DNA of 64,000 nucleotides from Candidatus Muiribacterium halophilum (GCA_002869225.1 PKTG01000122.1:32071-96070); one strand, 5' to 3'. Positions 12,018-47,609 are shown, counted from the stretch's first letter. Notes: generated by a model not told the origin, from the letters alone. Program-made: numbers and translations.

Positions 12018-12032
12018 TTTAATAAACGTGAC

Positions 12033-12061
12033 TTGTTTACTTTTTAAATTACGAGTATCAT
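12033..12061 (+). promoter_or_regulatory. Candidate sigma70-type promoter for pyrG (TTGTTT - 17 nt - TATCAT)
   Basis: Hexamers with 17-nt spacing about 40 nt upstream of RBS AAGAGGGG and ATG 12099. The AT-rich background makes chance matches common. Confidence 0.3.
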
Positions 12062-12086
12062 AATACAAATTGAAATAAAGTTATAA

Positions 12087-13697
<1,611 letters not shown>

Positions 13698-13705
13698 AGG
13701 AAGAG

Positions 13706-18365: not shown

Positions 18366-19595
18366 TTGATAGCATTTCCAGTCACATCAGCATGTCCTCT
18401 CAGTTGTGTGTTTTGTTCACACAATGGTAATCCATTTGACCTAAAAGTCGAGGAGATCAATTCTTATGATTCTGATCAAATACTAAAAAAAGCATCACTT
18501 ATAAAAAACAGAGAAATAGTAATAGGTGAATCTGCAACAAGGGTAATCGAAGGAGAACCCTTTTTATTTAAAGATATAATGAGGCTTATTGATATACTTG
18601 CTGAAAACAATAATAGTATATCTATAACTACAAGCGGAGTATTTTTAGATGAGAAGATCATAAAACGTCTGTCTGAGATACCGAAGCTTGAGATGAACAT
18701 CTCTGTTAATTCCATTGATCCTGAGTTTAGGAAAAAGTATCTTGGAGATAGGATAAGTAAGGACTTCAGGAACATACTTCACCTTCTTGATCTTTTTGAT
18801 GTTTCATATACTTCAAGTGTTGTGGCTTTAAAGATAAATAACGGTTTTGATGATCTGATAAAGACAATTGAATTTCTTGGAAAAAGTAAAAGTATACTAA
18901 ATCGAATTTTTATACCAGGCTTTACAAATATAAACAGAAACCCGATATTTGATTTTGATATAACTATACTTGAAAAGACGTTGAGAAAAATACGTGAAGA
19001 AAAAGTCCCGATAATAATCGAACCAGGTCCAATTGAAAAAGATATTAAAGTGCAGGCGATCCTAAAGTCCAGTGTTGCGGATGAGAATGATATTAAGTTT
19101 GATGATGTAATACTTTCTTTAAATGATAAAAGTGATCTAACAAGTAAAGATGTACATGAATTGCTTAAAGTAAATGGAAGGCATAAGATAAAAATAAAAA
19201 GAGGAAAGAGTATTATAAAAAAGGAGCTTAATATAAAAAACAATAGATCTGGTATAATACTTAAGGACAGTCCTTCAATGGAGTTGATGAAAAAAATAAG
19301 CTCTATAACAAAAGAAGATGATATCATAATCTGTTCGAGATTTTCAGAAGATTTTTTTAAAGGGATGTTTCCTTTTAAAAAAGTCCTTTCAGTTTCATGT
19401 GACAGGTTTGGAGGGAATATTTCCTGTAATGGACTCTTATCTGTGGGTGATATAAATTCGATATTACGAAAAGGTCAATGTGAATCAATAGTAATCGACC
19501 CTTCATTCCTAAATAACGATGGTATTGACCTTTTTGGACAGGATATTTATTCAATAACCTATGAAAAAGATATAAATATCAAGCTTCTTTATTAA
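18366..19595 (+). CDS. Radical SAM protein with PDZ-like and DUF512-like C-terminal regions
   Basis: CX3CX2C (CPLSCVFC) at residue ~10 and a GEPF glycine-rich motif. C-terminal FGGNISCNGLLSVGDI resembles the DUF512 signature. TTG start. Confidence 0.6.
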   Translation: MIAFPVTSACPLSCVFCSHNGNPFDLKVEEINSYDSDQILKKASLIKNREIVIGESATRVIEGEPFLFKDIMRLIDILAENNNSISITTSGVFLDEKIIKRLSEIPKLEMNISVNSIDPEFRKKYLGDRISKDFRNILHLLDLFDVSYTSSVVALKINNGFDDLIKTIEFLGKSKSILNRIFIPGFTNINRNPIFDFDITILEKTLRKIREEKVPIIIEPGPIEKDIKVQAILKSSVADENDIKFDDVILSLNDKSDLTSKDVHELLKVNGRHKIKIKRGKSIIKKELNIKNNRSGIILKDSPSMELMKKISSITKEDDIIICSRFSEDFFKGMFPFKKVLSVSCDRFGGNISCNGLLSVGDINSILRKGQCESIVIDPSFLNNDGIDLFGQDIYSITYEKDINIKLLY

Positions 19596-19628
19596 ACAAA
19601 CTTTAATGTTTACCGATAATTAGTTGAT

Positions 19629-20825
19629 ATGCTTTTAAATTTTCTTTTATTTGAACCGGATGAGAAACACGAATACTATAGTGGAATAAACCAGGGAGTC
19701 GCGATACTTATTCAGATCGCGAAAGACAATGGTCATGAAACTAAAGTATATTCTTTAGATCCTAAAAAACTCGATATTTTAGAGGATATTGAGTTGGAAT
19801 TAAACTCTTATTTTCTTATATCCACCTACTCGTTTGCAAGAGATACAATAAAAAAAGCAATTGCTGTGTTAAACAAACGTGGTTTTATGAACGTAATACT
19901 TGGTGGACCACATTTCACATTTGCTCCTGAAGACTTTTATGATGTTGATTTCCTTTGGGGTATAAGAGGAGAAGCTGAATTAATATTTGAGGATTTTTTA
20001 AATTGGAGAATCGATATAACTACCAAGGGTGTAGTTTACAGAGAAAATGATACTTATGTGGATAACGGTATTGCAGATCCAATTGAGGAAATTGAACGTT
20101 TTAAACCTTTTATTTATAAAGAACTTCAAGGAAAAGCAAAAAATTTAATAGGTGCTGAGATTCTAACATCAAGAGGATGTCCGTATTCGTGTTCTTATTG
20201 TCTGAACAGCGCTTATAACAACGAGTATGGAAGATGTTTGCTTAGAAGAAAAAGTCCGGAAAAAGTTATAAACGAGATACTGGATTATCCTTATGAATAT
20301 GATATTGTAGGATTTCATGATGATGTGTTTTCCCTTGATAAAGATTGGCTTAAAGAGTTTCTTTCCTTATACAAAAGGTTCATAAATAAAAGGTTCTGGT
20401 GTAATATACATGTCTTGAGTATCGATCAGGAAATAGTGAATATGCTAAAAGAAGGTGGTTGTGAAAGAGTGCATATAGGAGTTGAGAGTGGAAGTGAGAA
20501 GATAAGACATCTTATGAAAAGAGAGCATATGACTAATTCAGATATAATATCCGTATTTGATATGTTTAGACAAAGTAAAATAAAGACCGTGTCCTTTAAT
20601 ATTATTGGGTTTCCAGGAGAAACCGAAGAAGATATAAAAAAGACAATAGAACTTAATAAAGAGATAAGACCAGACTGGATATTGGTATCTAGATTTCAAG
20701 CATATCCAGGAACAGATTATTATAAAAAAGAATCAGAATTTCTTCAGAACTATTATAAGAGTAATGGAAATGATCTATATTCAAAATATCATGATGATTT
20801 TGTTAGCTTAGTCAGAGCTAAATGA
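19629..20825 (+). CDS. B12-binding-domain radical SAM protein
   Basis: N-terminal Rossmann-like domain, then LTSRGCPYSCSYC (CX3CX2C) and HIGVESGS. Confidence 0.75.
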   Translation: MLLNFLLFEPDEKHEYYSGINQGVAILIQIAKDNGHETKVYSLDPKKLDILEDIELELNSYFLISTYSFARDTIKKAIAVLNKRGFMNVILGGPHFTFAPEDFYDVDFLWGIRGEAELIFEDFLNWRIDITTKGVVYRENDTYVDNGIADPIEEIERFKPFIYKELQGKAKNLIGAEILTSRGCPYSCSYCLNSAYNNEYGRCLLRRKSPEKVINEILDYPYEYDIVGFHDDVFSLDKDWLKEFLSLYKRFINKRFWCNIHVLSIDQEIVNMLKEGGCERVHIGVESGSEKIRHLMKREHMTNSDIISVFDMFRQSKIKTVSFNIIGFPGETEEDIKKTIELNKEIRPDWILVSRFQAYPGTDYYKKESEFLQNYYKSNGNDLYSKYHDDFVSLVRAK

Positions 20826-23266: not shown

Positions 23267-24578
23267 TTTTGTTTCGTTTATTGGAATCTTTGTTTTACTT
23301 GGAATCGCTTATCTTTTATCGGATAACAAAAAGAAGATCAATTGGAAACTCGTTAGTTGGGGAATAGGTCTTCAACTTGTGTTTGCTTTTATTATTCTTT
23401 GGACAAAACCTGGTAGAGTATTTTTTGCATGGATAAAAGATGCTGTTGAAGTGCTTCTTGGTTTTACAAGAGCTGGTTCGGTATTTGTATTTGGAGGTCT
23501 GGTTGACAATATTGACTCATTTGGTTATATTTTTGCCTTTCAGGTCCTTCCAACTATAATTTTCTTCTCATCCTTTATGTCAGTACTTTATCATCTCGGA
23601 ATTATGCAGAAGATAGTAGTAGTAATGGCAAAAGCTATGACAAAATTTATGGGTGCATCGGGAGCTGAAAGTCTTTCATGTGCTGCTAATGTTTTTGTTG
23701 GTCAGACAGAAGCCCCTCTTGTCATTAAACCTTATATTAAGACTATGACTAAATCCGAGGTCATGACTTTGATGACTGGTGGTATGGCAACTGTAGCAGG
23801 TGGAGTAATGGCAGCTTATGTAGGTATGGGAGTAGATGCTGGACATCTTCTTGCAGCAAGTATTATGTCTGCACCGGCAGCAATTGTCATGGCGAAACTA
23901 TTAGTCCCTGAAGTGGAAGAGTCTCAGACTGCTGGAGATGTAAAACTTCAACTTGAGAAGACTTCTGTAAATGTTATTGATGCAGCAGCATCAGGAGCAG
24001 CAGATGGATTGAAATTAGCGTTAAATGTAGCTGCAATGCTTCTTGCTTTTATAGCACTTATTGATATGGTGAATTTCTTTATTGTAAAACTTAGTGGATT
24101 GTTTCTTACTGATCCTCTTACATTTCAGGGATTATTATCTTATATATTTGCTCCAATAGCTTGGATAATGGGTGTTCCTAAAGCCGATATGTATGAGATA
24201 GGAAAACTTCTTGGTATTAAGACTGTCCTTAATGAGTTTGTTGCTTATGCTGAACTTTCCAAAGTTGTTGGAAAACTCTCAGAAAGATCAGTAGTAATAG
24301 CTACTTATGCACTTTGTGGATTTGCAAACTTTTCATCAATAGCTATTCAGATAGGTGGTATTTCAGCCTTAGCACCAGGTAAAAAACATATGCTTGCAAA
24401 ACTAGGCATGAAATCCATGATAGGTGGCACTTTAGCTGCATTTCTTACTGCAACTATAGCCGGAATGTTATATCAGGAACCAACAAAGGCTTTGGATAAT
24501 ATGAAAGACGGTAAGAAAGTCTCATGTAATACAGTATATGAAAAAGATATAGATTATTGGAGATTGATTAGTGATTGA
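23256..24578 (+). CDS. nupC: NupC/CNT family nucleoside transporter (track start 23232; ATG 23256 is more likely)
   Basis: Polytopic protein with CNT motifs (FVGQTEAPLVIKPY, GFANFSSIAIQIGG). Confidence 0.88.
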   Translation: MLNNFVSFIGIFVLLGIAYLLSDNKKKINWKLVSWGIGLQLVFAFIILWTKPGRVFFAWIKDAVEVLLGFTRAGSVFVFGGLVDNIDSFGYIFAFQVLPTIIFFSSFMSVLYHLGIMQKIVVVMAKAMTKFMGASGAESLSCAANVFVGQTEAPLVIKPYIKTMTKSEVMTLMTGGMATVAGGVMAAYVGMGVDAGHLLAASIMSAPAAIVMAKLLVPEVEESQTAGDVKLQLEKTSVNVIDAAASGAADGLKLALNVAAMLLAFIALIDMVNFFIVKLSGLFLTDPLTFQGLLSYIFAPIAWIMGVPKADMYEIGKLLGIKTVLNEFVAYAELSKVVGKLSERSVVIATYALCGFANFSSIAIQIGGISALAPGKKHMLAKLGMKSMIGGTLAAFLTATIAGMLYQEPTKALDNMKDGKKVSCNTVYEKDIDYWRLISD

Positions 24579-24846
24579 TAAAGATACTACTGTAAAGTCA
24601 CCTGATAATATTCTTTTTACTCAACTCGAGGATGAGATAATCATCCTCGATATAAACACTGGAAAATATTTTTCTTTAAACTCTACAGCTGCGGATATAT
24701 TTAGAAGATTTGTAGATGGTGCTTCGTTTGGTGAAGTCCTGGATGAGATGAAGATAAGATATCCGGAGGCTTCAGAGAGACAACTCGAAAATGATATAAG
24801 AGAGATCATTATAGATCTTCGTGAAAGTGAGATATTTGATTTTTAA
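24571..24846 (+). CDS. PqqD-family protein (RiPP recognition element type; candidate lasso B1)
   Basis: 91 aa. ILFTQLEDEIIILDINTGKYFSLNSTAADIFRRFVDGASFGEVLDEMKIRYP...ENDIREIIIDL is the canonical PqqD/RRE pattern. GTG start overlaps the nupC stop. Confidence 0.8.
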   Translation: MIDKDTTVKSPDNILFTQLEDEIIILDINTGKYFSLNSTAADIFRRFVDGASFGEVLDEMKIRYPEASERQLENDIREIIIDLRESEIFDF

Positions 24847-24848: not shown

Positions 24849-27800
24849 ATGTACGAGATATGTTTTTATAATCTGGACATGTTTTTTTTTATACAGGCAT
24901 TACTGTATTCTTTTTCAATAATTTTTTGTTATCAGATATTTAATAAAGAAAAAGATCCATCTTTCCTTTTTTCGATTTTTGCCATGGTAGTACTGATTAT
25001 CAATATATTTTATGCAGGAATCGGAAGATTAGCTGATTTTAATTACGACTTTTCTGTAAGGCTTTTCTTTTTTATAATAATCCTTATAGAGGCTTTTTTT
25101 ATTGCTTTTAAGGGGAAAGAAAAATATTTCTTACGGTCTGTTGTTCTTGTACTCCTTGCAGGAAGTGACCTTACTTATGATTGGCTTTACAGAGAGATAT
25201 TTGCAGCTTTGATGTGTTTTCCACTTTTTCTGATTTATTTTAACGATCTGAAAAAAATAAAAAGTTCAGGTGAGATCAAAAATTTAAGCAAGATATTTAT
25301 ATTTTTTGCATTACTTCTTATATTTTCTTTTATTGTTATCTACAAAATAGGTCAGAAGGATTTTAAGCGTTTTTATTCGGATACACAAAAAAATCTATTT
25401 GAGATAAAAGGTAGAATAGAACGGGAGATAGATAATAGTCATACTCTACTAAGACTGTTTCCTGGAAAAAAGATAATAGATATCTTAAAAGATCCTATAG
25501 AGAATAACGATGATAAATATCATATTTACGAAAGATTTGATAAGTTAATATCTTTAAATCAAGGTAGTATTGTATATATAATGGATAGAAACGGAACTGT
25601 CTTGTTATCTTCAAATCATAATGAGAAGGATAGTTTCGAAGATAAAAATTTTAATTTTAGACCTTATTTTCTGGAAGCACTTCACGGACAGGATTCATCT
25701 TATATAGCCGTTGGTAAAGTAAGCGGTAAAAGAGGGTTATATATTTCCAGTCCAATAACTGATAGTAATAATAAGGTAGTAGGTGTCATAGTCTTAAAAA
25801 GACCTATGGAAATAATCGATGATATGCTTGAGTATAATGTTTTTATAATAAGCGAGTATGGTCTTATATTTTCATCAGGAAATAAGGATGATCTTTTAAG
25901 ATTTATTACACCAAAAGATATAGAGGTAATAAATAAATTAAGAGACAGTCAGCAATTTTATCTTAGCGATATACCGACTCCGATATTATCTAAACCTCTA
26001 GAAGAAGGAAAGATTGTCATTGATGAAAGTCAAAGTATTTGGGAGAATCTCTTGCCGGTTAGTTTTAAGCTTTCTGTTAAAGGGTTTAATATAATAAAAT
26101 TACAGGAATTTGATGGATTACATGAAAGAAGAATCCTAATAGATATGTTCCTCTTTTTCTGTTTTTTCTTTCTTTTTACAATAATAGCACATTATCAAAA
26201 TATTAAAGTGATTATGATGAGATTGAGAAACTCAGAGAGAAATCTTGCCCAAACGTTGGACCTTATGGCTGTTTTGGTCTTTGAGGTGGATGAGAGCTTA
26301 AATCTTTTATATTATAACAAAGCTTTTAATGATTTCTTTGGATTAGTAGATGAAGTTTCAAATTTAAAGGATGTCGTTCATAAAGATTCTATTCCAGATA
26401 TCATCTATATTTTTGCTAAAATGAAAAGATCGCCTATTTCTGATTTTGAATTTAATTTTAAAGATCAAAAAGGTGATAATAAATTTGTATTAATAAGTTC
26501 AACAAGTTTTATAAGAAATTCAGCTTTGAATTATAGAGTTGTACTTTATGATATAACCGGGAAAAAAGAGCTTATGAAAGAACTCGAGACCACAGATAAT
26601 AAATATTCATATACTCTTGAAAGTTTACCGTTGCCTCTTGTTGAGATAGGTGATGATAAAAATATATATTTAGTAAATGAGAGTTTCGTCGATGAATTTT
26701 TCTTTGAAAGAGATATACCATGTCTGGTAGAGGATGTCTTTTCCGAAAATTCCTTAGAGAATATTAACAATGCACTTGAAAAAGTTTTTAAAGGAGAACG
26801 AGTAGATAATATAGAAATATCTAGAAGAAAAGGAAAAAGAGAAAAATATTTTCTTGGATCAGCAATACCAGTATACGAAAAAGGTCACTTGACCAAAGGA
26901 AGATTTATCTTTAATAATATTACATCTTTGATCAGATATGAAAATGAGATCAGGGATCTTTTTATAGCAGTAGATACCTCCCTTGTTGGAATAAGTATAT
27001 ATACAAAAGATCTTATAATTATTTATTGCAATCCTATGTTCGAGGAAATAACCGGATATAAAAAGAGTGAGATAATTGGAAATACATCGGATAAAATAGG
27101 TATGAATTTTATAATAAGGGAAAAAGGATGGGAAGGTGAGATAACTTTAAATGATAAACAGGGAAAAGAAAAAATAATGTATCAGAAAATATCACCTGTT
27201 TATTCAAACAATAAAAACATTACTGGTTATGTCTCTGTAATAATAGATGTCTCTGATAGAAAGGAACTTGAAAAAGATCTCTTAAAAGCTAAGAAAAAGG
27301 CTGAAAGATTGAGTGAGACTAGGAAGCTTCTTATGATGAAGATGTCTCATGAGATAAACACTCCTCTAAATAAGATCATAAATATCGCACAAATATCCAT
27401 AGATCAATGCGTAGATAAAAATACATCGGAAGATCTAAAAAATATCATCTCAGAAAGTAAATTACTCAATCAGATAATAAGAAATATTCTTATATTATCT
27501 GAAATAGAGATGAATGGCTATAATATGAACATGAAAGAGACTGATGTAATATCAACAATTGAGGATACTGTGTAAAATCATCAGGAGTATGCTAAAGAAA
27601 AGGGAGTAAAAATAAACTTTGAGAAGAAGGATAATAGAATCGAAGATGTGATTTTGATTGACAAAAATGTTCTTGAACTGGTTTCTGGAAATCTTATATC
27701 AAACGCGATTAAATTTTCAAAAGATGGTAATGTAGATATAAATATCTCTTTAGATAAAGAACGAAAAAATATATTAATATTGACAGTAAAAGATAACGGA

Positions 27801-28451
27801 GTCGGGATTGAAAAAAATAAACAGACCCTTATTTTTGAACCATTCTTCCAGGAAGAGGATAGTTTGAGAAGACAATATCAGGGTCTTGGGATCGGTTTAT
27901 CGATAGTTAAAAAGGTACTTATCAGTATTGGTGGAGATATATTTTTAGAGAGTAATAAAGGAACAGGTTAAATATTTAGAGCAAGAATACCTTATAAAAT
28001 ATCTGCTAATAAAAAGACAACTAAAGTAGAAACTGATAAAACAGAATCTAAATTAAAAAATATTGGAAAAATAAATGTACTTGTAGTTGATGATGCAAGA
28101 GAAAATCGTTTTATCGTAAAGACATATCTTTCAAAACTTGGAATAAAGCCTGATGAAGCTTCTGGAGGCGAAGAAGCTCTTTTGTTAATAAAAGATAAGG
28201 ATTATGATATAATATTACTTGACATACAGATGCCAGGAATTGATGGATATCAAGTTTTAGATGAGGCAAGGCAACTAGAGGAAGGTAGAAGTAAAAAAGC
28301 TTTTATTATTGCACTGACGGCACATTCTTTGCCTGAAGATGTTGAAAAATCAAAAGCAGCAGGATTTGATGAGCATATAAGTAAACCGATCAGAAAAAAG
28401 GAATTCTTAATAAATATTAAAGAAGTAATAGAAAGGATGATCAAAGGATGA
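24849..28451 (+). pseudogene. Hybrid sensor histidine kinase (multi-TM, Cache-like, PAS, HisKA, HATPase_c, REC) carrying two in-frame TAA codons (27573-27575, 27969-27971)
   Basis: Track ORFs 24849, 27648 and 28182 share one frame with no other stops. H-box MSHEINTPLN. N/G boxes NLISNAIKFS ... DNGVGI ... GLGIGLSIV ... GTG*IF. REC has VLVVDD ... ILLDIQMPGIDG ... HISKP. Confidence 0.8.
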
Positions 28452-28756
28452 ATAGATTTACCGTTGAGGTCGATATCGATCTGAAAGAATTTATTCCAGA
28501 TTTTATTGAGGGTAAAGTTAAATCTTTTAAAGATGTATCAAAACTTATCGAAAATAAGGATTATGAAGGCATTTACAAGATAGGTCACGGATTAAAAGGA
28601 ACTGGTTCTGCATATGGTTTTGACTTTATAACCGAATTTGGAAAAAGACTTGAATCTCTTTCTAAAGAAAAAGATGATAGCTCGATTCAGAAGCTGTGTG
28701 ACGAAGCGCTTGAGTATTTAGATAAAATAGATATAAAATATGTAGTGATTGAATGA
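28448..28756 (+). CDS. Hpt (histidine phosphotransfer) domain protein
   Basis: 102 aa with the HGLKGTGSAYGF phospho-His motif. Confidence 0.7.
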   Translation: MNRFTVEVDIDLKEFIPDFIEGKVKSFKDVSKLIENKDYEGIYKIGHGLKGTGSAYGFDFITEFGKRLESLSKEKDDSSIQKLCDEALEYLDKIDIKYVVIE

Positions 28757-29871
28757 AAAAAACTGATGTATTGATTGTTGGTGCAGGTATATCAGGATTA
28801 TCTTCTGCATTATTCTTATCAAAACATGGAATTTCCGTAACCGTAATAGAGAAAAAAGATAGAGTTGGTACAAAACCATGTGCCGGCGGATTGACATTTA
28901 AATCTTTAAAACTTATCAAAAGTCTAATAGAGCCAAACATAACAAGACATATAAAAAAAAATAAAATCGCATCTATATTTCTCAAAAATAAAAAAATAAA
29001 AAAAATATTATCACCTTTCCCTTATTCGATTATATTAAGAAGACAACTCGATATATTATTATACAAAAAGCTTAATAAAAAAAATTGTAATATCTATTTT
29101 AGTGAGAAAATAAAGTATATTGACCTAAAAAAAAATATTCTTATAACAAAAAGTGGAAAAAAGATAGCTTTTAAATTCTTAATAGGTGCTGATGGTGTTT
29201 TTTCTTTTGTCAGAAAAATGATCAAAGGAAATAGAAGATTTAAAAGCTTTTTCAATACGGCCAGTGCAGTAATTCCATCTGATTCTCTAAAAAAAAAGGT
29301 AGATGATATGGAGTTTTACTTTGGAGAAAATAAAAAAGGTTATAAATGGATTTTTAATGGTGGTTCTTTTTATTCCTTTGGTTGTGGTGGACATGAAGAT
29401 GTTATTTCTTTAGAAAAAAAACTATTAAGATCTATAAATAAAAAGACTTTAATAAAAAAAATAAAAATATATCATCATCCTATACCAATAAGTAATAGAA
29501 TTTTTTATGGGAATAAAAACGTTTTACTTCTGGGAGATGCCGCTGGTCTTGCGGGTGGATTATATGGTGAGGGTATTTTTAATGCACTTATAAGTTCTTT
29601 TGTTGCTGCAAATACGATTAGATTTCATTTTGCGGGTAATAAAGATCTTGATGATCTAGCTTATATTTATAGAAAAAACATGAAAATAGCGTTGGGAAAT
29701 ACTCTTGTTATTGAAAATTTATTAGCACAGGTGTATTATACTATTATGGAGATAACAAAAGGATATTTACTTTTGCCATTAATAAAAACACTTAGTTTAC
29801 CGATATTATACACTGGACATGAAAAATTTGGAATTCCTGGAATAAATAAAACTCTTGGAGATGTTTTTTAA
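28753..29871 (+). CDS. FAD-dependent oxidoreductase (geranylgeranyl-reductase-like)
   Basis: DVLIVGAGISGLSSALFLSKHGISVTVIEKK dinucleotide fold and LLGDAAG motif. Very Lys-rich with many A-runs. Confidence 0.65.
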   Translation: MKKTDVLIVGAGISGLSSALFLSKHGISVTVIEKKDRVGTKPCAGGLTFKSLKLIKSLIEPNITRHIKKNKIASIFLKNKKIKKILSPFPYSIILRRQLDILLYKKLNKKNCNIYFSEKIKYIDLKKNILITKSGKKIAFKFLIGADGVFSFVRKMIKGNRRFKSFFNTASAVIPSDSLKKKVDDMEFYFGENKKGYKWIFNGGSFYSFGCGGHEDVISLEKKLLRSINKKTLIKKIKIYHHPIPISNRIFYGNKNVLLLGDAAGLAGGLYGEGIFNALISSFVAANTIRFHFAGNKDLDDLAYIYRKNMKIALGNTLVIENLLAQVYYTIMEITKGYLLLPLIKTLSLPILYTGHEKFGIPGINKTLGDVF

Positions 29872-29886: not shown

Positions 29887-30258
29887 ATGAAGATACTCGC
29901 ACTTGATGATGATATTGCTATGACAAATCTGATCAAGGCATATGCAAAAAAATTAAATTATAGTGTTGAAGTAATAAACAATCCTGATAAACTTCTGGAA
30001 AAGATCGCAAGATTTAATCCTGATCTTATAATACTTGATCTTATGATGCCAAAAAAAGATGGTCTTTCTCTTTTAAAAAGTATTAAAGAAATGGAACTTT
30101 TCAAACACATCCCTGTTCTAATAATAAGTGCAAGGGCTAATCGTTCAACAATATTATCCTGTCTTTCAGCTGGTGCTATAGGATTTTTGCCGAAGCCTAT
30201 CGGACTTGACTTACTCTCAAAAAGACTTCATGATATATTTGATGAAAAAGAATCCTGA
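29887..30258 (+). CDS. Single-domain CheY-like response regulator
   Basis: ILALDDD ... LIILDLMMPKKDG ... PVLIISA ... LPKP receiver motifs. No output domain. Confidence 0.85.
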   Translation: MKILALDDDIAMTNLIKAYAKKLNYSVEVINNPDKLLEKIARFNPDLIILDLMMPKKDGLSLLKSIKEMELFKHIPVLIISARANRSTILSCLSAGAIGFLPKPIGLDLLSKRLHDIFDEKES

Positions 30259-30343
30259 TGAGATATATTTTCTATTAAAGATCTATTTTATCTTTTTATA
30301 TATATTTTTTTAAACTTCTCTTAAAATCTCATTTAAAGCTTCA

Positions 30344-30562
30344 TTGATAATTAGCAGATATCTTTCAAAAATCATATTATTTCAAGACGATTATGAAAGG
30401 TTTATATTAGAGCTTAATGTTAAAGGTCTTAAAAATTGTTTGAGAAAAAGTATTGCTAAAAAAGTAATGCTTGCAAACTGTGGACTTAGATATAGACTTA
30501 GGTTTATGGTTAAAAAAAATAATGTTGGAGCTCATGTGTTTCATGTGAGACTTGAGAAATAA
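30344..30562 (+). CDS. Minimal or truncated lasso-peptide leader peptidase (B2, transglutaminase-core-like)
   Basis: NCLRKSIAKKVMLANCGLRYRLRFMVKKNNVGAHVFHV parallels the B2 core pattern CLxRSLAxxxxLxxxGxxxxLxxGVxxxxxxxxAHAWVE. Cys32-His64 spacing is 32 residues. The frame opens only at 30314 with a TTG start, and it stops before where the third triad residue is expected. Confidence 0.5.
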   Translation: MIISRYLSKIILFQDDYERFILELNVKGLKNCLRKSIAKKVMLANCGLRYRLRFMVKKNNVGAHVFHVRLEK

Positions 30563-30563
30563 T

Positions 30564-31874
30564 ATGGCTTTATTAAAAGTTATAGAAAATAGAATAGAGA
30601 TACTAGATGATAGATTACTTAACCATCATATTTGTAAAGAATTTGAGGCTTTTTATTTTAATGATCATATAATCAATTGTAGTTTTAAAGAATTGTTTTC
30701 ATTACCTGAAAACAAGTTTTGTGGATTAATAATAAAAGATAATAGGATCTTTATATTTAGAGATAGATTCTCTCCGATTCCTCTTTATTATAATAAAACC
30801 AACTCTTCAGAATGGTTTGTATCTGAAAGATTTTCAAATTTGAAAAACTTCTTTTGTCATAAAAAAGTAACAAAATCAAGATTCCTAAAGATAAAAAATG
30901 GTAATACTGATGATCTAAGTGATACTTTTTTTAAAAAAATAAAGAGGGTGATTCCAGGTAAGATGATTCAATGTGCTAATGAAAAAGTCTTCAATGTCAA
31001 AAAAAGAATAGATGATGTAAATGGATTTGAGTATGATTTTAAAAGTATTATCAAAAATGAAACAATAAAAAAAGGCAGTTATGCGACTTTATTAAGTGAG
31101 GGAGCTGATTCAGGAGCTGTCTCATATACTCTCAAGGAACTGCGAATAAAAAATAAAAACTACTCAATAATATTTGACAAAGAATCAGAGACAATAATAA
31201 AAAGTAGGGACGAAGATGTTATATCTTTTTACCCGGAAGAACTAAAAGATTATATATCAGGTAAAGGTTTTGAGAGTATTGAGTATGATTTTAATCCTAA
31301 TGCCAATATGTTTATCCCTGTTCTAAAAAAAATGAAGAAAGATGGAATAACGGATGTGTTTATGGGAGTAGGTGGAGACGAGATACATGGAAGCGATTTT
31401 CCAGTGTCTTTTTTCTGGGATTGTATTATAAGGGGATACTTTGATCAGTTAAGATTTAGCAGAAAGTTCTTTTTGTTTGTATTATTAAACTATCCAAAGG
31501 GAATACATAGAGGTTCGTTTTTAAAATATCAGATAAATAGGGTAATTAATTCTAATTTTTTGATCTTTAACCTTGAAAAGATATGGAAGTTTTTTATAGA
31601 GTATGGTATATATGTGCACTTCCCGTTTTATGACTCAAGATTGATCAATAACATAATGAACTCATCAATCCTTGATATTGTAAAGTTTAATAAGGAGAGT
31701 GGATATCTCATAAAGCAAAAGGATCTTTTATTTTTAAACACTGTTTATAGGAAAAGAAATTTTCTTGATATAATCCTTTCAGAACTTGAACTGACAAGAG
31801 AAGATTATAAAGAATGGTTAGATGAAAGAGCTTGGCATCTTTTTAAAAAAGAACTTGAAAATTTGTGTAAATAA
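30564..31874 (+). CDS. Asparagine-synthetase-like lasso peptide cyclase (C protein)
   Basis: Degenerate PP-loop (LLSEGADSGAVS in place of SGGxDS) and the AsnB motif MGVGGDEIHG. Short N-domain without the Cys2 glutaminase nucleophile. Lies directly upstream of the precursor. Confidence 0.65.
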   Translation: MALLKVIENRIEILDDRLLNHHICKEFEAFYFNDHIINCSFKELFSLPENKFCGLIIKDNRIFIFRDRFSPIPLYYNKTNSSEWFVSERFSNLKNFFCHKKVTKSRFLKIKNGNTDDLSDTFFKKIKRVIPGKMIQCANEKVFNVKKRIDDVNGFEYDFKSIIKNETIKKGSYATLLSEGADSGAVSYTLKELRIKNKNYSIIFDKESETIIKSRDEDVISFYPEELKDYISGKGFESIEYDFNPNANMFIPVLKKMKKDGITDVFMGVGGDEIHGSDFPVSFFWDCIIRGYFDQLRFSRKFFLFVLLNYPKGIHRGSFLKYQINRVINSNFLIFNLEKIWKFFIEYGIYVHFPFYDSRLINNIMNSSILDIVKFNKESGYLIKQKDLLFLNTVYRKRNFLDIILSELELTREDYKEWLDERAWHLFKKELENLCK

Positions 31875-31897
31875 GGATTTTTTTATATAATCTTATT

Positions 31898-32038
31898 ATG
31901 GAAAAAAAACAAAATGAAAACAAAGTATATGTAAAGCCAGAGATCAAAGAACTTGGCGATGCTTCTAAACTTACCAAAGCAGCAACAGGTCCTGATGCTG
32001 ATGGCACTTGGGGACAGTTGACCACCCCGGTTTCCTGA
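31898..32038 (+). CDS. Lasso peptide precursor (46 aa; leader 1-27, predicted core AATGPDADGTWGQLTTPVS)
   Basis: MEKKQNENKVYVKPEIKELGDASKLTKAATGPDADGTWGQLTTPVS. It fits Yx2PxLx3Gx5Tx exactly (Y11, P14, I16, G20, T26). Asp is at core position 8. Not in the supplied track (<60 aa). Confidence 0.8.
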   Translation: MEKKQNENKVYVKPEIKELGDASKLTKAATGPDADGTWGQLTTPVS

Positions 32039-32045
32039 TATTTAA

Positions 32046-32621
32046 ATGTCAAATGAAAGTTTTTCCAGTTTCTCATTTATCAAAAAAAAATGTCTTTTTA
32101 AAAATATTTTTAAATATAGATATATCTTTGATATTCCTGATATAAAAGAAAAGATATTAAGAAAAAGATCGTTAAATGGGGATAGGTTCCTATTTATTGT
32201 AAAAGGATTGTTTTTTTTAATAAATAAATCTGATGATGACATCTTTATCGTATATTCACTTAACGAACCTGAGAAGGATGACATGGTCTGTTATGCTGCA
32301 CTTCCTTATCTTGGTGTATTTTTAGATGTTCCCGTGTTTCATGTATCAGGAGTCAGATTAGGAGAAAAGTATTATCTTTTTGCTGGTAAAAGTGGATCTG
32401 GAAAATCAACTATAGCAAAATATCTAAGAGATAATCTGGATGCGAATATAATAGCGGATGATTTTATTTTTCTAACAGAAAACGGACTTGAGACAACTGC
32501 TTTTTATATAAAAGAAGATCAACAATATTTAAAAAACGATGATTTTAATAAAGAAGATATTTTAGATGATATTACATATATTTTTATTGAAGACTTTAGT
32601 GAATCAAAAAAAATAAAATAG
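32046..32621 (+). CDS. HPr-kinase-related (HprK C-domain-like) peptide kinase
   Basis: FHVSGVRLGEKYYLFAGKSGSGKSTIAKYL...IIADDFIFL matches the HprK-related kinase core (P-loop followed by a DD motif). Begins 7 nt after the precursor stop. Confidence 0.65.
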   Translation: MSNESFSSFSFIKKKCLFKNIFKYRYIFDIPDIKEKILRKRSLNGDRFLFIVKGLFFLINKSDDDIFIVYSLNEPEKDDMVCYAALPYLGVFLDVPVFHVSGVRLGEKYYLFAGKSGSGKSTIAKYLRDNLDANIIADDFIFLTENGLETTAFYIKEDQQYLKNDDFNKEDILDDITYIFIEDFSESKKIK

Positions 32622-32629
32622 ATGAATTT

Positions 32630-32806
32630 ATGTTCATAATGAAAAACACCTATAATATGAATTTTCTGAAGGAAAAAGGAATAACTCAGAAAGTATATAC
32701 AATGATCGCTGAGTTTTACCAAAAAAATGATTTTATTAAAATAGATTATACAAAGGATTATCATGGATTTGAAAGATTAAGGGAGATAATGATTGAGTAC
32801 TCTTGA
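32630..32806 (+). CDS. 58-codon ORF: either a small protein or the displaced N-terminus of the downstream nucleotidyltransferase
   Basis: Begins 9 nt after the kinase stop and overlaps the next ORF by 14 nt in another frame. No motif recognised. Confidence 0.25.
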   Translation: MFIMKNTYNMNFLKEKGITQKVYTMIAEFYQKNDFIKIDYTKDYHGFERLREIMIEYS

Positions 32807-33671
32807 AAGGTTTCATAACAGAAAATATAGTGGGCGTTTAAACTCTGAGATTCAAAAGGAAAAATTGGGTGATATCTTTTTTCTTGTATCAGCTAAAATA
32901 AATCATATATTAAAAAAGAATAAAATAAGGTTCTTTTTTGTAAAAGGAATATTTCTTTCTCAGATACTATATAAAAACATTAACAAAAGACCGGGGAAGG
33001 ATATAGACATCTATATTCACCCCTCTGATAGATATAAAGCACTACGAGTGATCAAAAGGATAGGATACGATGTACCGCTTGGCTATAAAACAGTAAAGAG
33101 TTTCTACATGCCTTTTTGTATGGATTTTACAATAACTGATAGGAGTATTAATATCGATCTACATTTCTATCTTATAGATGTTGGAGAAAGAAGCCTAAAT
33201 GATTATTTTGAATCATTAGAAATCTTAGATATTAAAGGTATTAAATTTCCTGTTACGAAAAAAGAATTTCATCTTTATTATGTGATTCATCATGCTTTAA
33301 AACACAGGTTTGAATATACGGGTATGATGATAGATATTATTGAATTATATATGGAATTAGATAAAAGTATCCTGCTTATTTCTACTGAGAAAAAATTTAT
33401 AAAAAAAGCAAAAATACTTTTGAATAGGCAAATAAGACCAATAAAAGAAGGTTCACTTAAAGCCTATCTCATGAGTTTTTTGATCTTAAATAATGTTGAG
33501 AGATTAAGGTTTTTAATAAAACATTTTGTTTTACCAATGCCAAACAACTGTTTTATGGTGGATAAATTTGAATATACTGGTATATTTATTTTAATTTTTT
33601 ATCGGATTTATAAAATAGTTTATAATAGAATAGTTCAAACATTAAATAGTAGGTGTATTGATGAGGTCTGA
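32793..33671 (+). CDS. Nucleotidyltransferase family protein (PF14907-like)
   Basis: FVKGIFLSQILYKNINKRPGKDIDIYIHPSDRYKALRVIKRIGYD matches the KG...Y...R...DIDLLV...A...L...GY signature. TTG start, and the N-terminal region is shorter than usual. Confidence 0.75.
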   Translation: MSTLERFHNRKYSGRLNSEIQKEKLGDIFFLVSAKINHILKKNKIRFFFVKGIFLSQILYKNINKRPGKDIDIYIHPSDRYKALRVIKRIGYDVPLGYKTVKSFYMPFCMDFTITDRSINIDLHFYLIDVGERSLNDYFESLEILDIKGIKFPVTKKEFHLYYVIHHALKHRFEYTGMMIDIIELYMELDKSILLISTEKKFIKKAKILLNRQIRPIKEGSLKAYLMSFLILNNVERLRFLIKHFVLPMPNNCFMVDKFEYTGIFILIFYRIYKIVYNRIVQTLNSRCIDEV

Positions 33672-33783
33672 AATTAATTCTGTTTCTTTTAGCACTGTCA
33701 AAAAAACATTTTCAGATTATATGTTTAGGTGTTTAAAGCCTAATATGGAAAAAATAAAACAACTATGGATTGCTATTTGTTAG
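33661..33783 (+). other. 40-codon ORF that looks like the true N-terminus of the heparinase-like gene, in a different frame
   Basis: ATG 33661 overlaps the upstream stop (a typical coupled start). FSDYMFRCLKPNMEKIKQLW resembles the usual ...LKPxQ...R... N-terminus of heparinase II/III-like proteins. It ends at TAG 33781, inside the start region of the main ORF. Confidence 0.4.
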
Positions 33784-33793
33784 GAATAAAAAA

Positions 33794-35971
33794 ATGAAAA
33801 ATATCCCAGATATTTTGAAAAACCGAATTAAAACAATCATTTTTAAAGTTAAAGAACTTGAAAAAACAATATTTGATAATCTTTTTAAAACAAAATCCGA
33901 ATTTAATAATAAGACATATTTTAATCAAAAAATATTGAATATTAATGATTTTTGTTTTGATGATTATAATTTTAAAAATAATAATTATCAGAAAAATATG
34001 TTTTTAAAAGGTAGATTTAACTATTTAGGAAGTGGTTGGGTCTATTGTGGTTATAATAGTGATGTTTTAGGATTTGACAATGTAAAGTATGATAGTAATA
34101 TTCTTTTAAAAAAGATTGACAATAATGGTTTTTGGTTGGAAAGTTTAATAAATAGATCAAACTTGAAATCCTCAAAAAAAATCTGGAAAAAAATTAGAAA
34201 CCCAAGATACATACCGCTTGATTGGCAAAAAGATTATAAAAGTGGATACAGGTGGAATTTAAAAAATACATCAAGTGGGATAAATAAAAACATTGGCAAA
34301 AAATATGGTGTGGATATTAAAACACCTTGGGAACTTTCTCGAATGCATCATCTGTTACTAATGGCTATTTTATCGGTATATAATTCGAAAGATGCATATT
34401 CAACAATCAATTATTTTCATGATAATATTTTGGATTTTATAAGTTTAAACCCTCCAAGATATGGAGTAAATTGGGTTTGTACGATGGAAGTATCAATTAG
34501 AGTTATTAATATGTTATTAGCTTTTGATATATTTAAGCAATTAGATAAGTTGAATATATTAGACGATACATTTACTGAAATATTTTTAACTTCAGTCTAT
34601 GAGCATGGGTTACATATTTTTGAAAATTTAGAATTCAATTCCAAATTTACAACAAATCACTATTTAAGTAATATAGCAGGATTAATATTTATTTCTAGAT
34701 ATTTAAAACCTGACAAAACTACAATTAATTGGTTGCATTTTTCTATAAATGAATTAGTCAAAGAAACTGAGAAACAATTTTATGATGATGGCGGAAATTA
34801 TGAAAGTTCTTCTTGTTATCATAAATTATCTTCTGAAATTTTAGTATATAGTTTCTCAGTCCTATTAGGAATGGAACAAAATATATTAAAACATCTTAAA
34901 AAGAATTACCAAAAAATGAAAATATCTCCAAATAAATGTATGTATTCTATAATAAAGAAAGAAGAAGATTATAAGATTTGTTTTTCTGATAGGTTAATAA
35001 AAAAATTTTTTAAAATCGGGGTTTTTTTAAAAGATATAATGAAAAATAATAATAACATCCCTCAAATAGGGGATAATGATAGTGGTCATTTTATTAAATT
35101 GTCTTCTTATGGAGAATTTATGTCTAACTCCGAAGCACAGGAAAAATATCTTAACCTTAAGGGTTATATAAATTATTTAGAAAAGAATGAATATAAGGAA
35201 TCTTATTATTTTGATGAAAATAATCTTAATGTCGAATCATTGATAGGTTGTTTTAAAGGAATATTTTTAACGGATAAAGAGTTTAATAATGGTTCAAAAC
35301 TGGAAGAAAGCTTTATAAAAAATTTATCAGGAAATAATAAGTTGAAAATTGCTGTTGAAGAAAACAAAGAAAATAATATACAAAGAGGTGAAAAATACTT
35401 TTTGTTAAAAAATAGTTTGAAATATTTAAAAAAACAGACTTTTATTGGGAAAAACTTAAAGTATAAATTGAAAAATTATTTTTATCCTGAAAGCGGTATT
35501 ATTTTATTTAAATCTGACGAACTTTACTTATGTTTTTATTCTACCCCTGTTGGACAGAATGGTAATGGAGGACATTCTCATAATGATAAAGGTTCTGTAG
35601 AACTTGTTATAAATAATTGTGAGATTTTGAAAGATCCTGGTTCCTATATTTATACAGCCGATCCAAAAAGAAGAAATTTATATAGAAGCACACCTAGTCA
35701 TAATTGTATTTCTGTTGATAATATCGAACAAAACAACTTAGAAAATAGTGTTGAAAAAATATTCAAATTAAAGGAAACATATAAGTCTGAAATCTTAGAG
35801 TTTAATGATACAACTGCTACTATGTTAATTACATATAAAAATATAAAAAATCTTAGAACAGTTAAAATTTATAATAATAAAATTCATATTATTGATAGAT
35901 GTAATAAAAGGTTTGAAATAAATAAATCAACTGTATCTTATTCTAATGGTTATGGAAAGCTCTATAAATGA
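33794..35971 (+). CDS. Heparinase II/III-like protein
   Basis: C-terminal GGHSHNDKGSVELVINNCEILKDPGSYIYT...YRSTPSHNCISVD signature. Track start is TTG 33770; the first ATG is 33794. Confidence 0.8.
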   Translation: MKNIPDILKNRIKTIIFKVKELEKTIFDNLFKTKSEFNNKTYFNQKILNINDFCFDDYNFKNNNYQKNMFLKGRFNYLGSGWVYCGYNSDVLGFDNVKYDSNILLKKIDNNGFWLESLINRSNLKSSKKIWKKIRNPRYIPLDWQKDYKSGYRWNLKNTSSGINKNIGKKYGVDIKTPWELSRMHHLLLMAILSVYNSKDAYSTINYFHDNILDFISLNPPRYGVNWVCTMEVSIRVINMLLAFDIFKQLDKLNILDDTFTEIFLTSVYEHGLHIFENLEFNSKFTTNHYLSNIAGLIFISRYLKPDKTTINWLHFSINELVKETEKQFYDDGGNYESSSCYHKLSSEILVYSFSVLLGMEQNILKHLKKNYQKMKISPNKCMYSIIKKEEDYKICFSDRLIKKFFKIGVFLKDIMKNNNNIPQIGDNDSGHFIKLSSYGEFMSNSEAQEKYLNLKGYINYLEKNEYKESYYFDENNLNVESLIGCFKGIFLTDKEFNNGSKLEESFIKNLSGNNKLKIAVEENKENNIQRGEKYFLLKNSLKYLKKQTFIGKNLKYKLKNYFYPESGIILFKSDELYLCFYSTPVGQNGNGGHSHNDKGSVELVINNCEILKDPGSYIYTADPKRRNLYRSTPSHNCISVDNIEQNNLENSVEKIFKLKETYKSEILEFNDTTATMLITYKNIKNLRTVKIYNNKIHIIDRCNKRFEINKSTVSYSNGYGKLYK

Positions 35972-36097
35972 TTGGTATAAAGTATTAGCCATACGACGTA
36001 GTAATCTAAAAAGATATGTTGGAATTGTACATATAATATTATATCTCTGAAAAGGGAAGAAAGTAAGATCAATTATAAGAGATGACTTTTCAGATTT

Positions 36098-37216
36098 CTA
36101 TTTTGGTTGTTTATAAATTGAGATTAATTTATTTGCAACGGTTTTATATGAATATTGCGATAATATTCTTTTTCTGTTTTTAATCCTATAATCCTTCGCT
36201 GAATCGTTTTTTAAGATGGAAAGTGCATTATTTAATTTTTCTTTAAGATCTTTTAAATTGTTTTCTTTAAAAATGAGTCTTTTATCATGTACAAGATTTT
36301 TGAGTTCGCCAGAATCAGAACATATAACAATAGAGTTTGCATTAATAGCTTCGATTACCACTCTTCCAAATTGTTCCTTTATATTTGGCATTGTTCTTGA
36401 AGGAACTATAAGAATGTCGATGTTTTTATAAAATTCTAACATCTCTTTATGTTCCTTATGTCCTAAATATTCTATAGAAGGAGATTGAATTAAATTTTCA
36501 AGATAAGAACCTTTTCCTACTGCATAAAATCTTAATTTTTTATTAGACATAGATTCTGCAAGGTCAATAAAAAGATCGATTCCTTTAACCTCTTCAAATC
36601 TTCAGGCAAAACCAATTCTAATGATATTTCCTGATAAATTATTTCTTAAAGGTTTTGATCCTTCGATTTCGTTTACCGTCAATGGTATGATTTTATGAAT
36701 CTTTTTTGAGCCTTTTGCTCTTAGTACTTTTGAAATATCTTCAGTCAGTGGTAGCATTATTGTACAATTATTAATGACAAATCTTTCAAAAAAAGAAAAC
36801 GGAAACGGAAAATTTTTTTTTATATTTTGAGCACTGAAACATAGTAGTTTAGCATCTTTGTTTGTAAAACGTGAAAGAAGACATACTAGAAAGGATGTAA
36901 GACTATAAGGTTCCTCGATTATATGTATTACATCGAACTTTTTTAGGATCAGATAGAAGATACTTGGATATATTAAAGTTAGATTAAGTAGAGGTTTGCT
37001 TAGCCAAAGAAATAGAGGTATATTTCTTATTATTTTCATATTTTTATCATCATCATTTTTTTTAAAAAACTGCCATTTTCCAGCTTCTTTCCAAAATAAT
37101 GGAGTGAGTAAAGTGATATTAAATTCCTTTTTTTTAGATATATTCTGAAAAAGTCTTCTATAAGAATCTATTATTAGTGAATGAGATATTACCAGTATTT
37201 TTTTATTCGATTTCAT
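36098..37216 (-). pseudogene. GT4 glycosyltransferase interrupted by an in-frame TGA (36602-36604)
   Basis: Track ORFs 36602..37216 and 36098..36550 are in the same frame. The junction reads IRIGFA*RFEEVKGIDLFIDLAE, where GT4 enzymes have ...vGRl...KG. The EX7E region (KEQFGRVVIEA) is in the C-terminal part. Confidence 0.8.
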
Positions 37217-46679: not shown

Positions 46680-47609
46680 ATGGACTTTAATATGAAGCAC
46701 ATTATATCTATCAATGATTTTCAAAGAGAAGAGATAGATTATATTCTTGACCAATCAAAAAAGATGGAAGAATTACCACAAAAAGATAAAATAGAGCTTT
46801 TTAAAGGTAAGGTAATGGCTTCCTTGTTTTTTGAACCTTCAACAAGAACAAAAGATTCATTTATTTCTGCTTGTCTCAAAATGGGAGGCAATCATGTAGG
46901 ATTTAGTGATACATCTTCAACCTCTTTAAAAAAAGGAGAGACCTTTGCGGATACGATTCGGATGTATGAAAAGTATTCGGATATTCTTGTAATAAGACAT
47001 AGCATCGAAGGAGCAGCCAGATATGCTTCTGAGATTCTTAGTATTCCAGTTATCAATGGTGGAGATGGCGCAAATCAACATCCTACTCAGACGTTACTTG
47101 ATCTTTATTCAATAAAAAAATCAAAAGGATCGATAGATAATAATAATATTTTAATAGCTGGTGATCTTAAGTATGGTAGAACAGTTCATTCATTATCATT
47201 AGCTTTAAGTCTATTTGATAATATCAATCTTACATTTGTGAGCCCACCATCTCTTAGAATGCCGGATGAAATTACAGAGATGCTGAGAAACAGAGGAGTC
47301 AGCTTTTCTATTTATGACAATCTTGAAGAAGCTGTAAGGGACAATGATATAATTTACATGACTCGTATACAGAGGGAAAGATTTCCAAATGGTGCTTAAT
47401 ATGAAAGAGTCAAGAACTCTTATCTTATCGATAGAGAGCTTTTAGAAAGATGTCCTACCGATATCAGGATCATGCATCCTCTACCTAGAGTAGGTGAGAT
47501 CTCAACTGAGGTAGATCATATGCCACAGGCCTTATATTTTCAACAGGCAGCAAACGGTATTCCGGTGAGACAATCGCTGCTTATGCTTCTTACAGGAGGT
47601 GTTCTATGA
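46680..47609 (+). pseudogene. pyrB: Aspartate carbamoyltransferase catalytic chain with an in-frame TAA (47397-47399)
   Basis: STRTK, HPTQ and the post-stop continuation YERVKNSYLIDRELL...IMHPLPRVGEISTEVD...YFQQAANGIPVRQSLLMLL are all in one frame. TGA 47607-47609 overlaps the pyrI ATG. Confidence 0.9.

Follow-up and report, generated by a model that had tools for sequence, protein, structure and literature searches.

RESULTS

Genes of the locus

We analyzed a 64,000-nucleotide (nt) stretch of DNA, hereafter the window, from a metagenome-assembled genome (MAG) of Candidatus Muiribacterium halophilum. Positions 30344-33671 are, in our judgment, likely to form the central part of a class II lasso peptide cluster of the kinase-plus-nucleotidyltransferase type (paeninodin/pseudomycoidin/Bsf-like). 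A preliminary description of this DNA had proposed a six-gene operon for a ribosomally produced, post-translationally modified peptide (RiPP) of the lasso family, and six co-directional, tightly packed open reading frames (ORFs) are indeed present, each where it had been placed:

30344-30562, plus strand: ORF1, 72 amino acids (aa)
30552/30564-31874, plus strand: ORF2, 440/436 aa
31898-32038, plus strand: ORF3, 46 aa
32046-32621, plus strand: ORF4, 191 aa
32630-32806, plus strand: ORF5, 58 aa
32793-33671, plus strand: ORF6, 292 aa

Two of the six are nevertheless artifacts of this assembly. ORF1, which had been described as a transglutaminase-core-like fragment, is the part, making up the 3' two-thirds, that follows a private stop codon in a B2 gene that is intact (106 aa) in five other assemblies of the same organism, and ORF5, thought to be a separate gene, is the C-terminal end of the kinase, put out of frame by the loss of 1 nt. 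The comparison with these assemblies, set out below, indicates that both are fragments arising from assembly-private changes and not separate genes. The biosynthetic genes read as follows:

24571..24846, plus strand: B1, PqqD-family RiPP recognition element, 91 aa (PF05402 49.1 bits, cut-off 23.4)
30242..30562, plus strand: B2, short transglutaminase-like leader peptidase, 106 codons (in the window, in-frame TAA at 30311-30313)
30564..31874, plus strand: C, short AsnB-like macrolactam synthetase, 436 aa (assigned by family profile, hhalign and motifs)
31898-32038, plus strand: A, precursor peptide, 46 aa, with a leader at 31898-31978 (27 aa) and a core at 31979-32035 (AATGPDADGTWGQLTTPVS)
32046..32806, plus strand: K, HprK-related precursor kinase, intact at 253 aa in other assemblies (the window has lost 1 nt from the A-run 32606-32613)
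32793..33671, plus strand: N, PF14907 nucleotidyltransferase-fold protein, 292 aa (PF14907 77.1 bits, cut-off 31.2), putative counterpart of PsmN/BsfN

The functional unit is larger than first described. It is a single co-directional array comprising B1 (from 24571), a hybrid histidine kinase (HK), an Hpt protein, a geranylgeranyl-reductase (GGR)-like flavoprotein, a receiver protein, B2, C, A, K and N (to 33671). The C and N proteins are identical to the hypothetical proteins C0601_10945 and C0601_10955 of the Candidatus Muiribacterium halophilum MAG, C itself being publicly annotated as a hypothetical protein. The NCBI record has a single locus tag in the interval from C to N, and so probably leaves the precursor without an annotation. 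A promoter and terminator scan performed no better than on shuffled sequence, and operon boundaries are therefore set by gene spacing alone; Rfam gave no match.

Related loci share the gene order

Relatives' loci were collected from the relatives of C and from genome and metagenome scans, and define four lineages:

Window: nucleoside transporter-PqqD-HK-Hpt-GGR-like-receiver-B2-C-A-K-N-heparinase-like
L002/L020, a second Candidatus Muiribacterium halophilum MAG: nucleoside transporter-PqqD-B2-C-A-K-N-membrane protein-Hpt-C11 peptidase
L005/L008/L017, another Muiribacteriota MAG: aroC-endonuclease I-GGR-like-B2-C-A-K-N-membrane protein-aroKB
L004, a contig of 44% G+C: exopolysaccharide (EPS) genes-AsnB-K-PqqD-B2-C-(start of A, contig end)

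The order B2-C-A-K-N is kept in three Muiribacteriota lineages, and the comparison of gene neighborhoods that had been proposed as a check shows the lasso gene set recurring together with its precursor. Between the window and L002, the cluster proteins are 27-50% identical, and the flanking housekeeping genes 53-70%. L011, a candidate from the metagenome scan, was discarded as a standard AsnB of 605 aa encoded among EPS genes.

A distant K-PqqD-B2-C cluster (L024) was found in Logan run SRR22388190. At 3685/3763-4875 of L024, a lasso-type leader motif (KQKYEKPLIKKIGSLKDLSQ) is in frame at the N terminus of a PRMT-like methyltransferase domain, which is either a leader-enzyme fusion or the result of an assembly error that removed the stop codon of the precursor.

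The precursor peptide

The small ORF proposed earlier as the precursor has orthologs directly after the cyclase gene in every relative: L008, L002, L023 and, in part, L004. Four complete precursors could be compared, those of the window, L008, L002 and L023, the last being a close variant of the window's; that of L004 is incomplete (MAEKEVKKTYKKPKLKKIGTVAELT...). Written as leader/core, they read MEKKQNENKVYVKPEIKELGDASKLTK/AATGPDADGTWGQLTTPVS in the window, ...KKYEKPEVKFLGKVEKLTG/SGGGTNSDALWTQYNPSLS in L008, ...SVYKKPTITYLGKVSNLTK/GGGSQTSDGWMAYTTIVVS in L002 and ...KLTK/ASTGPNSDGTWGQLTTPVS in L023.

In all four, the leader keeps Tyr(-17), Pro(-14), Ile/Val/Leu(-12) and Thr(-2), a spacing that is exactly that of the YxxPxL...T motif of lasso leaders (positions per PMC10368454). 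All four cores have 19 residues, of which the first is Ala, Ser or Gly; Asp8 is fixed, position 10 or 11 is occupied by Trp, and the last residue is Ser, the sole invariant hydroxyl residue across the set. The window's own precursor shows the features expected of a lasso substrate, namely Y(-17), P(-14), I(-12), T(-2), Ala1 and Asp8. Relative to L023, its codons differ by 10 synonymous and 7 nonsynonymous changes; Asp6 is replaced by Asn in the L023 core, and Asp8 is retained. Moreover, the G+C content of the gene is 42.6%, compared with 26-28% in the adjoining genes. Because of this coding-type substitution pattern, the deviant G+C content and the conserved lasso spacing, the predicted precursor is a genuine, selected coding gene bearing lasso hallmarks.

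The predicted cyclase

When 1.8 billion representative proteins were scanned exhaustively with HMMER, three real relatives of C emerged, namely, P0003 (E 4e-32), P0004 (1e-30) and P0005 (1e-8), the remaining matches being ordinary AsnB proteins of ~600 aa at E > 1e-6. Word-indexed protein searches with C and N retrieved the queries themselves only, and single-sequence searches of the PDB with C and K gave noise or P-loop matches. The family profile of C matches asparagine synthetases in the PDB (E 5e-6). By hhalign, C aligns over 320 columns (99.7% probability, E 1e-26) with P0010, a cyclase-like protein that is encoded in the L024 cluster and itself fits the lasso cyclase model best of all families. 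The family (409-436 aa) keeps the PP-loop SEGxDS (SGGLDS in P0005) and GxGGDE motifs, and the glutaminase part found at the N terminus of AsnB is missing from C. From these profile and motif comparisons, the homology of C to the AsnB/lasso-cyclase superfamily is clear, in line with its earlier description as an AsnB-like cyclase, even though all of its hidden Markov model (HMM) scores lie below the curated cut-offs.

Predicted leader-recognition and leader-peptidase proteins

The preliminary description reported no RiPP recognition element (RRE). This holds within 30344-33671, but a PqqD-family B1 that passes the Pfam cut-off is encoded at 24571-24846, 5.4 kb upstream of B2; although not adjacent to it, B1 belongs to the same co-directional array. 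In NCBIfam it comes closest to two lasso PqqD chaperone models, NF033530 (E 1e-12) and NF033536, without reaching the cut-off of either. It is 50-52% identical to the product of the PqqD gene immediately upstream of B2 in L002; used as a tblastn query, the L002 protein finds window positions 24571-24843 (50% identity, E 2e-27), and the order POR-POR-nucleoside transporter-PqqD is common to both loci. B1 and the transporter gene share 8 nt, and 2 nt separate B1 from the HK gene. Four genes part it from B2, encoding the hybrid HK, the Hpt protein, the GGR-family flavoprotein and the receiver.

In the window and two relatives, PF13471 (22.4 bits, cut-off 26) and NF033537, the lasso B2 model (17-19 bits, cut-off 33), are the only families that B2 matches. 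An alignment of B2 from the window, L008, L002 and L004 shows a conserved Cys (NCL) and Phe-His, and homology to the N termini of the relatives continues upstream of the TAA at 30311-30313. The window's B2 ends 5 residues past the conserved His, and those of its Muiribacteriota relatives 11-19 residues past it.

Kinase and nucleotidyltransferase

When the deletion is repaired, the reconstructed K aligns end to end with K of L008, L002 and L004, and 252 of its 253 residues are identical to those of the intact K in assembly L012. Its motif H99-G114-G117-G119-K120-S121-D138-D139 is that of characterized lasso kinases (PMC10368454, PMC9266682), the BsfK counterpart being H148...D187. The top NCBIfam models of the relatives' K proteins are HPr(Ser) kinase and HprK-related kinase A/B (E 4e-7 to 4e-9), and the K family profile finds the HPr kinases 3tqf and 1knx as its top PDB matches (E 0.002). 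The complete H-G-G-G-K-S-D-D motif and the matches of the relatives bear out the HprK-related kinase proposed earlier. We also considered ORF5 as a degenerate B1, since psmB1 holds that position, and rejected this because the ORF aligns as the kinase C terminus.

The assignment of N to a PF14907-like nucleotidyltransferase is sustained by a score well above the family cut-off. N contains a conserved DxD metal motif (DIDI) and overlaps K by 14 nt; orthologs lie 3' of K in L002 and L008, and both pass PF14907.

A phosphorelay and a flavoprotein between B1 and B2

The genes that separate B1 from B2 are as follows:

24849..28451, plus strand: hybrid sensor HK (dCache, PAS, HisKA, HATPase_c, REC), 1200 aa when intact (Pfam run on its three pieces)
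28448..28756, plus strand: Hpt phosphotransfer protein, 102 aa (Pfam Hpt 23.8 bits, cut-off 24.6)
28753..29871, plus strand: GGR-family FAD protein, 372 aa (TIGR02032 139 bits, cut-off 158.8; PF01494 69 bits)
29887..30258, plus strand: single-domain response regulator, receiver only, 123 aa (Pfam Response_reg 88 bits), its 3' end overlapping the start of B2

The NCBIfam matches of the HK are hybrid kinases of the TorS/LuxQ/ArcB type, and the Hpt gene overlaps each of its neighbors by 4 nt. The preliminary description had the cluster wedged between a phosphorelay and an EPS locus. Both do flank B2-N, the phosphorelay upstream and, downstream, a heparinase II/III-like gene followed by an EPS locus of the Wzy/GT4/Wzz/Wza type. 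However, because all genes from B1 to B2 overlap or lie at most 15 nt apart, the predicted phosphorelay is embedded between B1 and B2 and not merely beside the cluster. An Hpt homolog (39% identity, E 6e-22) is encoded at 12705-13007 of L020, two genes 3' of N and with no HK or receiver nearby, and some link between phosphorelay and cluster may predate the split of the window and L002/L020 lineages.

A GGR homolog (29% identity, E 4e-33) lies directly upstream of B2, and overlaps it, in L005 (3584-4717) and L017 (7297-8427); in L017, an island EndoI-GGR-B2-C-A-K-N-M is inserted between aroC and aroKB. The GGR gene thus adjoins the cluster in two of the three Muiribacteriota lineages and is not near it in that of L002. 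The flavoprotein may be an accessory or tailoring enzyme.

Export and genomic setting

The absence of an adjacent ABC exporter and isopeptidase, remarked on earlier, was upheld. No ABC transporter is encoded between 12 and 53 kb of the window, the only one in the window being a half-transporter (ABC_membrane plus ABC_tran) beside lpxB at 9510-11300, which we read as MsbA-like. No S9-type isopeptidase was found near the cluster, and the ~700-aa ORFs tested had no Pfam match at E <= 0.001. In two relatives, a membrane protein with 8-9 predicted transmembrane segments is encoded directly 3' of N and overlaps it (L017, 11749-12531; L020, 11715-12677). The two proteins are 36% identical (E 8e-18) and match no Pfam family, and we regard them as a candidate exporter or immunity protein. 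A search for this protein across the window and in the N terminus of the HK found no similarity.

As described previously, the cluster occupies the most AT-rich part of the window, the stretch at 29-37 kb (24-29% G+C). The heparinase II/III-like protein (33770-35971, 733 aa) is encoded within this stretch, directly 3' of N and on the same strand; in assembly L014, its gene is split in two (11898-14075). The diderm background is also borne out by TonB/ExbBD, an LpxI-LpxB fusion and an SLH-domain protein encoded in the window. The fusion is a single 642-aa ORF at 7573-9501, with the N- and C-terminal domains of LpxI joined to LpxB, followed by the half-transporter gene and then by that of a DUF374 protein. 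At 412-3224 and 18366-20825 are PelF-like (DUF3492 plus GT1) and PelG-like genes and, after TonB-ExbBD, genes for two radical SAM proteins, one of them with a B12-binding domain. The PelF-like and PelG-like genes indicate a second polysaccharide system, of the Pel type.

DISCUSSION

A probable divergent lasso cluster and its predicted product

The lasso-type RiPP cluster of the preliminary description is supported by our analysis, mainly through comparative evidence and less through the HMM searches that it had proposed. Those searches gave a divided answer: PF14907 and PqqD pass their curated cut-offs, whereas B2, C, K and A remain below threshold. We attribute the missed assignments to the enzymes being so divergent. 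The cluster is probably a real, highly divergent lasso cluster whose product would have a phosphorylated and probably sugar-decorated tail.

By analogy with characterized systems, we propose a pathway in which the chemistry, threaded topology, order of steps, export route and roles of the phosphorelay and flavoprotein are predicted. The PqqD-like B1 would bind the 46-aa precursor through the Y(-17)xxP(-14)xI(-12) leader motif, and K would phosphorylate the invariant C-terminal Ser19. B2, a short Cys/His protease, would cleave after Lys(-1), guided by Thr(-2). C would then adenylate the Asp8 side chain and couple it to the amine of Ala1, yielding an 8-residue ring and an 11-residue tail, with Trp11 and neighboring bulky residues as candidate plugs. 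Finally, N would decorate the phospho-Ser, either with a hexose or with a group derived from a nucleotide. The predicted neutral monoisotopic masses are 1825.85 (lactam), 1905.81 (plus phosphate), 2067.87 (plus phosphate and hexose) and 2229.92 (plus phosphate and two hexoses).

Several points weigh against a lasso cluster of this type. C scores far below the cut-offs of asparagine synthase TIGR01536 (E 9e-10; 38 bits, cut-off 267), lasso cyclase NF033535 (E 2e-4; 20 bits, cut-off 525) and PF00733 (15.6 bits). Its PP-loop reads SEGxDS instead of SGGxDS, and known characterized lasso cyclases are ~100-200 residues longer. The lasso leader model NF033521 gives the precursor 16.5 bits, below its cut-off of 19; all HMM scores of K are likewise under the curated cut-offs, and the window's own K matches only generic P-loop models and the PEPCK P-loop. 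In McjB, the canonical triad Asp stands ~12 residues after the His; since the window's B2 ends 5 residues after its His, this third residue is absent. B2 and K are, moreover, disrupted in the window sequence as given, and the cluster has no nearby exporter. AlphaFold2 models were unusable both for C (4-sequence alignment, pLDDT [predicted local distance difference test] 39) and for the K fragment (single sequence, pLDDT 35). No product has been observed, and a threaded topology should not be assumed because unmodified pseudomycoidin is unthreaded.

Alternative readings

It is possible, though on the unlikely side, that the cluster makes a lasso-family RiPP whose product departs from the pseudomycoidin model, being an unthreaded branched-cyclic peptide, phosphorylated elsewhere than at Ser19, nucleotidylated and/or modified by the GGR protein. 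BsfK targets Ser3 and not the C terminus, the core contains several Thr residues, unmodified pseudomycoidin lacks threading, and the chemistry of PsmN is unsettled; a GGR-like gene is also next to B2 in two lineages, within the inserted island in L017. On the other hand, the C-terminal Ser is the one hydroxyl residue common to the four complete cores, as in characterized C-terminal kinase systems, and the L002 lineage has no GGR gene near its cluster. A related and more doubtful idea is that the Muiribacteriota possess a distinct, miniaturized lasso machinery, with a B2 of ~106 aa built on a Cys-His dyad and a cyclase of ~410-436 aa, whose product in this species would be wired to the embedded phosphorelay and in which the GGR protein would be a new tailoring enzyme. 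If so, the peptide would be a self-sensed signal or a regulator of the HK-Hpt-receiver relay.

It is improbable that the cluster is a decaying, nonfunctional remnant in which the nonsense codon of B2 and the frameshift of K leave no mature peptide. The disruptions themselves are present in the window sequence: B2 has an in-frame TAA, K is split by a frameshift into the 191-aa and 58-aa ORFs, the adjacent HK gene and a glycosyltransferase gene are also broken (by two stops and one, respectively), and the region has the lowest G+C content of the window. We compared the window base by base with five independent assemblies of the same organism (L012-L016), which are 99.8-99.9% identical to it over the 20 kb covered. 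All of these genes are intact there, encoding an HK of 1200 aa (L012-L015), a B2 of 106 aa, a K of 253 aa and a glycosyltransferase of 372 aa. Private to the window across the 20 kb are one 1-nt deletion and 16 substitutions. Of the latter, 12 are C>A or G>T, and four create stop codons (at 27574, 27970, 30312 and 36604). In B2, a Ser codon TCA becomes TAA at 30311-30313; in the HK gene, TAA codons arise at 27573-27575 and 27969-27971, where all other assemblies have C and the window A; and the GT4 glycosyltransferase gene is interrupted at 36602-36604 (minus strand). The deletion leaves A8 at 32606-32613 of K in place of the A9 found elsewhere.

Decay specific to the cluster is further countered by C, A, N and B1, which are unbroken in the window itself, and by the housekeeping gene pyrB, which likewise has an in-frame TAA (47397-47399, Glu in homologs), although the comparison with the other assemblies, by which a change is judged window-private, did not extend to this site. 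Because the genes are intact elsewhere and the changes show a G:C>T:A bias, we favor an assembly or library error or a recent mutator subpopulation over decay. The private C>A/G>T pattern fits oxidative-damage artifacts or a MutY/MutM-type mutator lineage. Overall, the comparison ties the disruptions to this assembly, or to a mutator subpopulation of very recent origin, and gives no evidence for a truncated B2 or a novel ORF. Reassignment of stop codons was rejected: the stops include TGA as well as TAA, they align with different residues (Ser, Gly, Glu), and the other assemblies have sense codons. More generally, the apparent degeneracy of a cluster among MAG gene fragments needs checking against other assemblies before it is interpreted.

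Among these assemblies, L012 stands apart by 18 differences clustered within 86 bp (35984-36069). They fall in the spacer that separates the heparinase-like gene from the convergent glycosyltransferase gene; over the remainder of the 20 kb, identity is ~99.9%. This tract suggests local recombination or strain variation.

Finally, it is scarcely credible that the AsnB-like, kinase and nucleotidyltransferase genes serve polysaccharide modification as part of the adjoining EPS locus, with a spurious small ORF. In favor of this reading, the heparinase II/III-like gene and the EPS locus lie 3' of the cluster, L004 is set amid MurJ, glycosyltransferase and true AsnB genes, and true AsnB genes do occur in EPS loci (L011). 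Against it, each of the four lineages has a conserved precursor 3' of C, L004 in its EPS-like locus included; a PqqD RRE and a B2-like protease accompany C; C is without the glutaminase part of AsnB; and the clusters of L017 and L020 sit between shikimate-pathway genes and between a nucleoside transporter and a C11 peptidase, respectively, and hence in no EPS locus. The preliminary description had named EPS loci with the same gene set and no precursor as grounds for this reading, and the loci compared give none.

Comparison with known systems

The lasso cluster described here is unusual in its short B2 and C, in the separation of B1 from B2 by a phosphorelay and a flavoprotein, in having no ABC exporter and in belonging to the little-studied phylum Muiribacteriota. 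A full-text literature search returned no paper linking lasso peptides to Muiribacteria. The claim that this lineage makes the system new stands in that the cluster is new and divergent; the novelty is smaller than was implied, because lasso clusters with K and N are already described in the diderm Bradymonas (PMC10368454) and clusters with two-component systems in Butyrivibrio (PMC7533575). The small B2 and C enzymes could be useful for defining the minimal lasso machinery, and the family provides four natural variants of the core in which Asp8, Trp10/11 and Ser19 are fixed.

The local gene order, an AsnB-like cyclase followed by the precursor and an HprK-like kinase (C-A-K...N), is reminiscent of the psm cluster of Bacillus pseudomycoides, psmC-A-K-B1-B2-N-D (PMC6993621). 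In that system, PsmK and PsmN phosphorylate and then glycosylate the C-terminal Ser, and unmodified pseudomycoidin is not a threaded lasso (PMC6993621). Both clusters share a split B1/B2, and an N protein of the nucleotidyltransferase fold (in the window, PF14907), and in both the precursor has Ser as its last residue. The window's cluster differs in its diderm, candidate-phylum host, in having no ABC exporter D, in the position of B2 upstream of C and in the four genes (HK, Hpt, GGR-like and receiver) between B1 and B2. Its C and B2 are far smaller, at 436 and 106 aa, with a sequence similarity too low for the HMM cut-offs, and its predicted ring is Ala1-Asp8, whereas that of pseudomycoidin is Ala1-Glu9.

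Paeninodin (pade) of Paenibacillus dendritiformis and the ThcoK-type kinases provide a second parallel, PadeK and ThcoK having a His-Lys-Asp-Asp motif (PMC9266682). Like paeninodin, the window's peptide is of class II (no Cys). Paeninodin clusters, in contrast, are without an N gene and carry an ABC transporter, and the window's enzymes are shorter and have diverged much further.

The bsf cluster of the diderm Bradymonas sediminis contains A, B1, B2, C, D, K and N; BsfK phosphorylates Ser3, and the H-G-G-G-K-S-D-D motif was validated in this kinase (PMC10368454). The diderm host, the presence of both K and N, the kinase motif and the YxxPxL leader motif are common to the two systems. Bsf, however, has Ile(-2), a C-terminal Asp, phospho-Ser3 and an ABC exporter, while the window's cluster has Thr(-2), a C-terminal Ser and no exporter.

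Lasso clusters of rumen Butyrivibrio and Lachnospira encode an HPr kinase, a nucleotidyltransferase, glycosyltransferases and two-component systems (PMC7533575). As in the window, genes for signal transduction and of polysaccharide type thus stand beside lasso clusters of the K/N type. Those clusters carry WalK/ResE-type kinases with DNA-binding regulators, whereas the window has a multistep relay, composed of a hybrid HK, a separate Hpt protein and a receiver-only protein, between B1 and B2.

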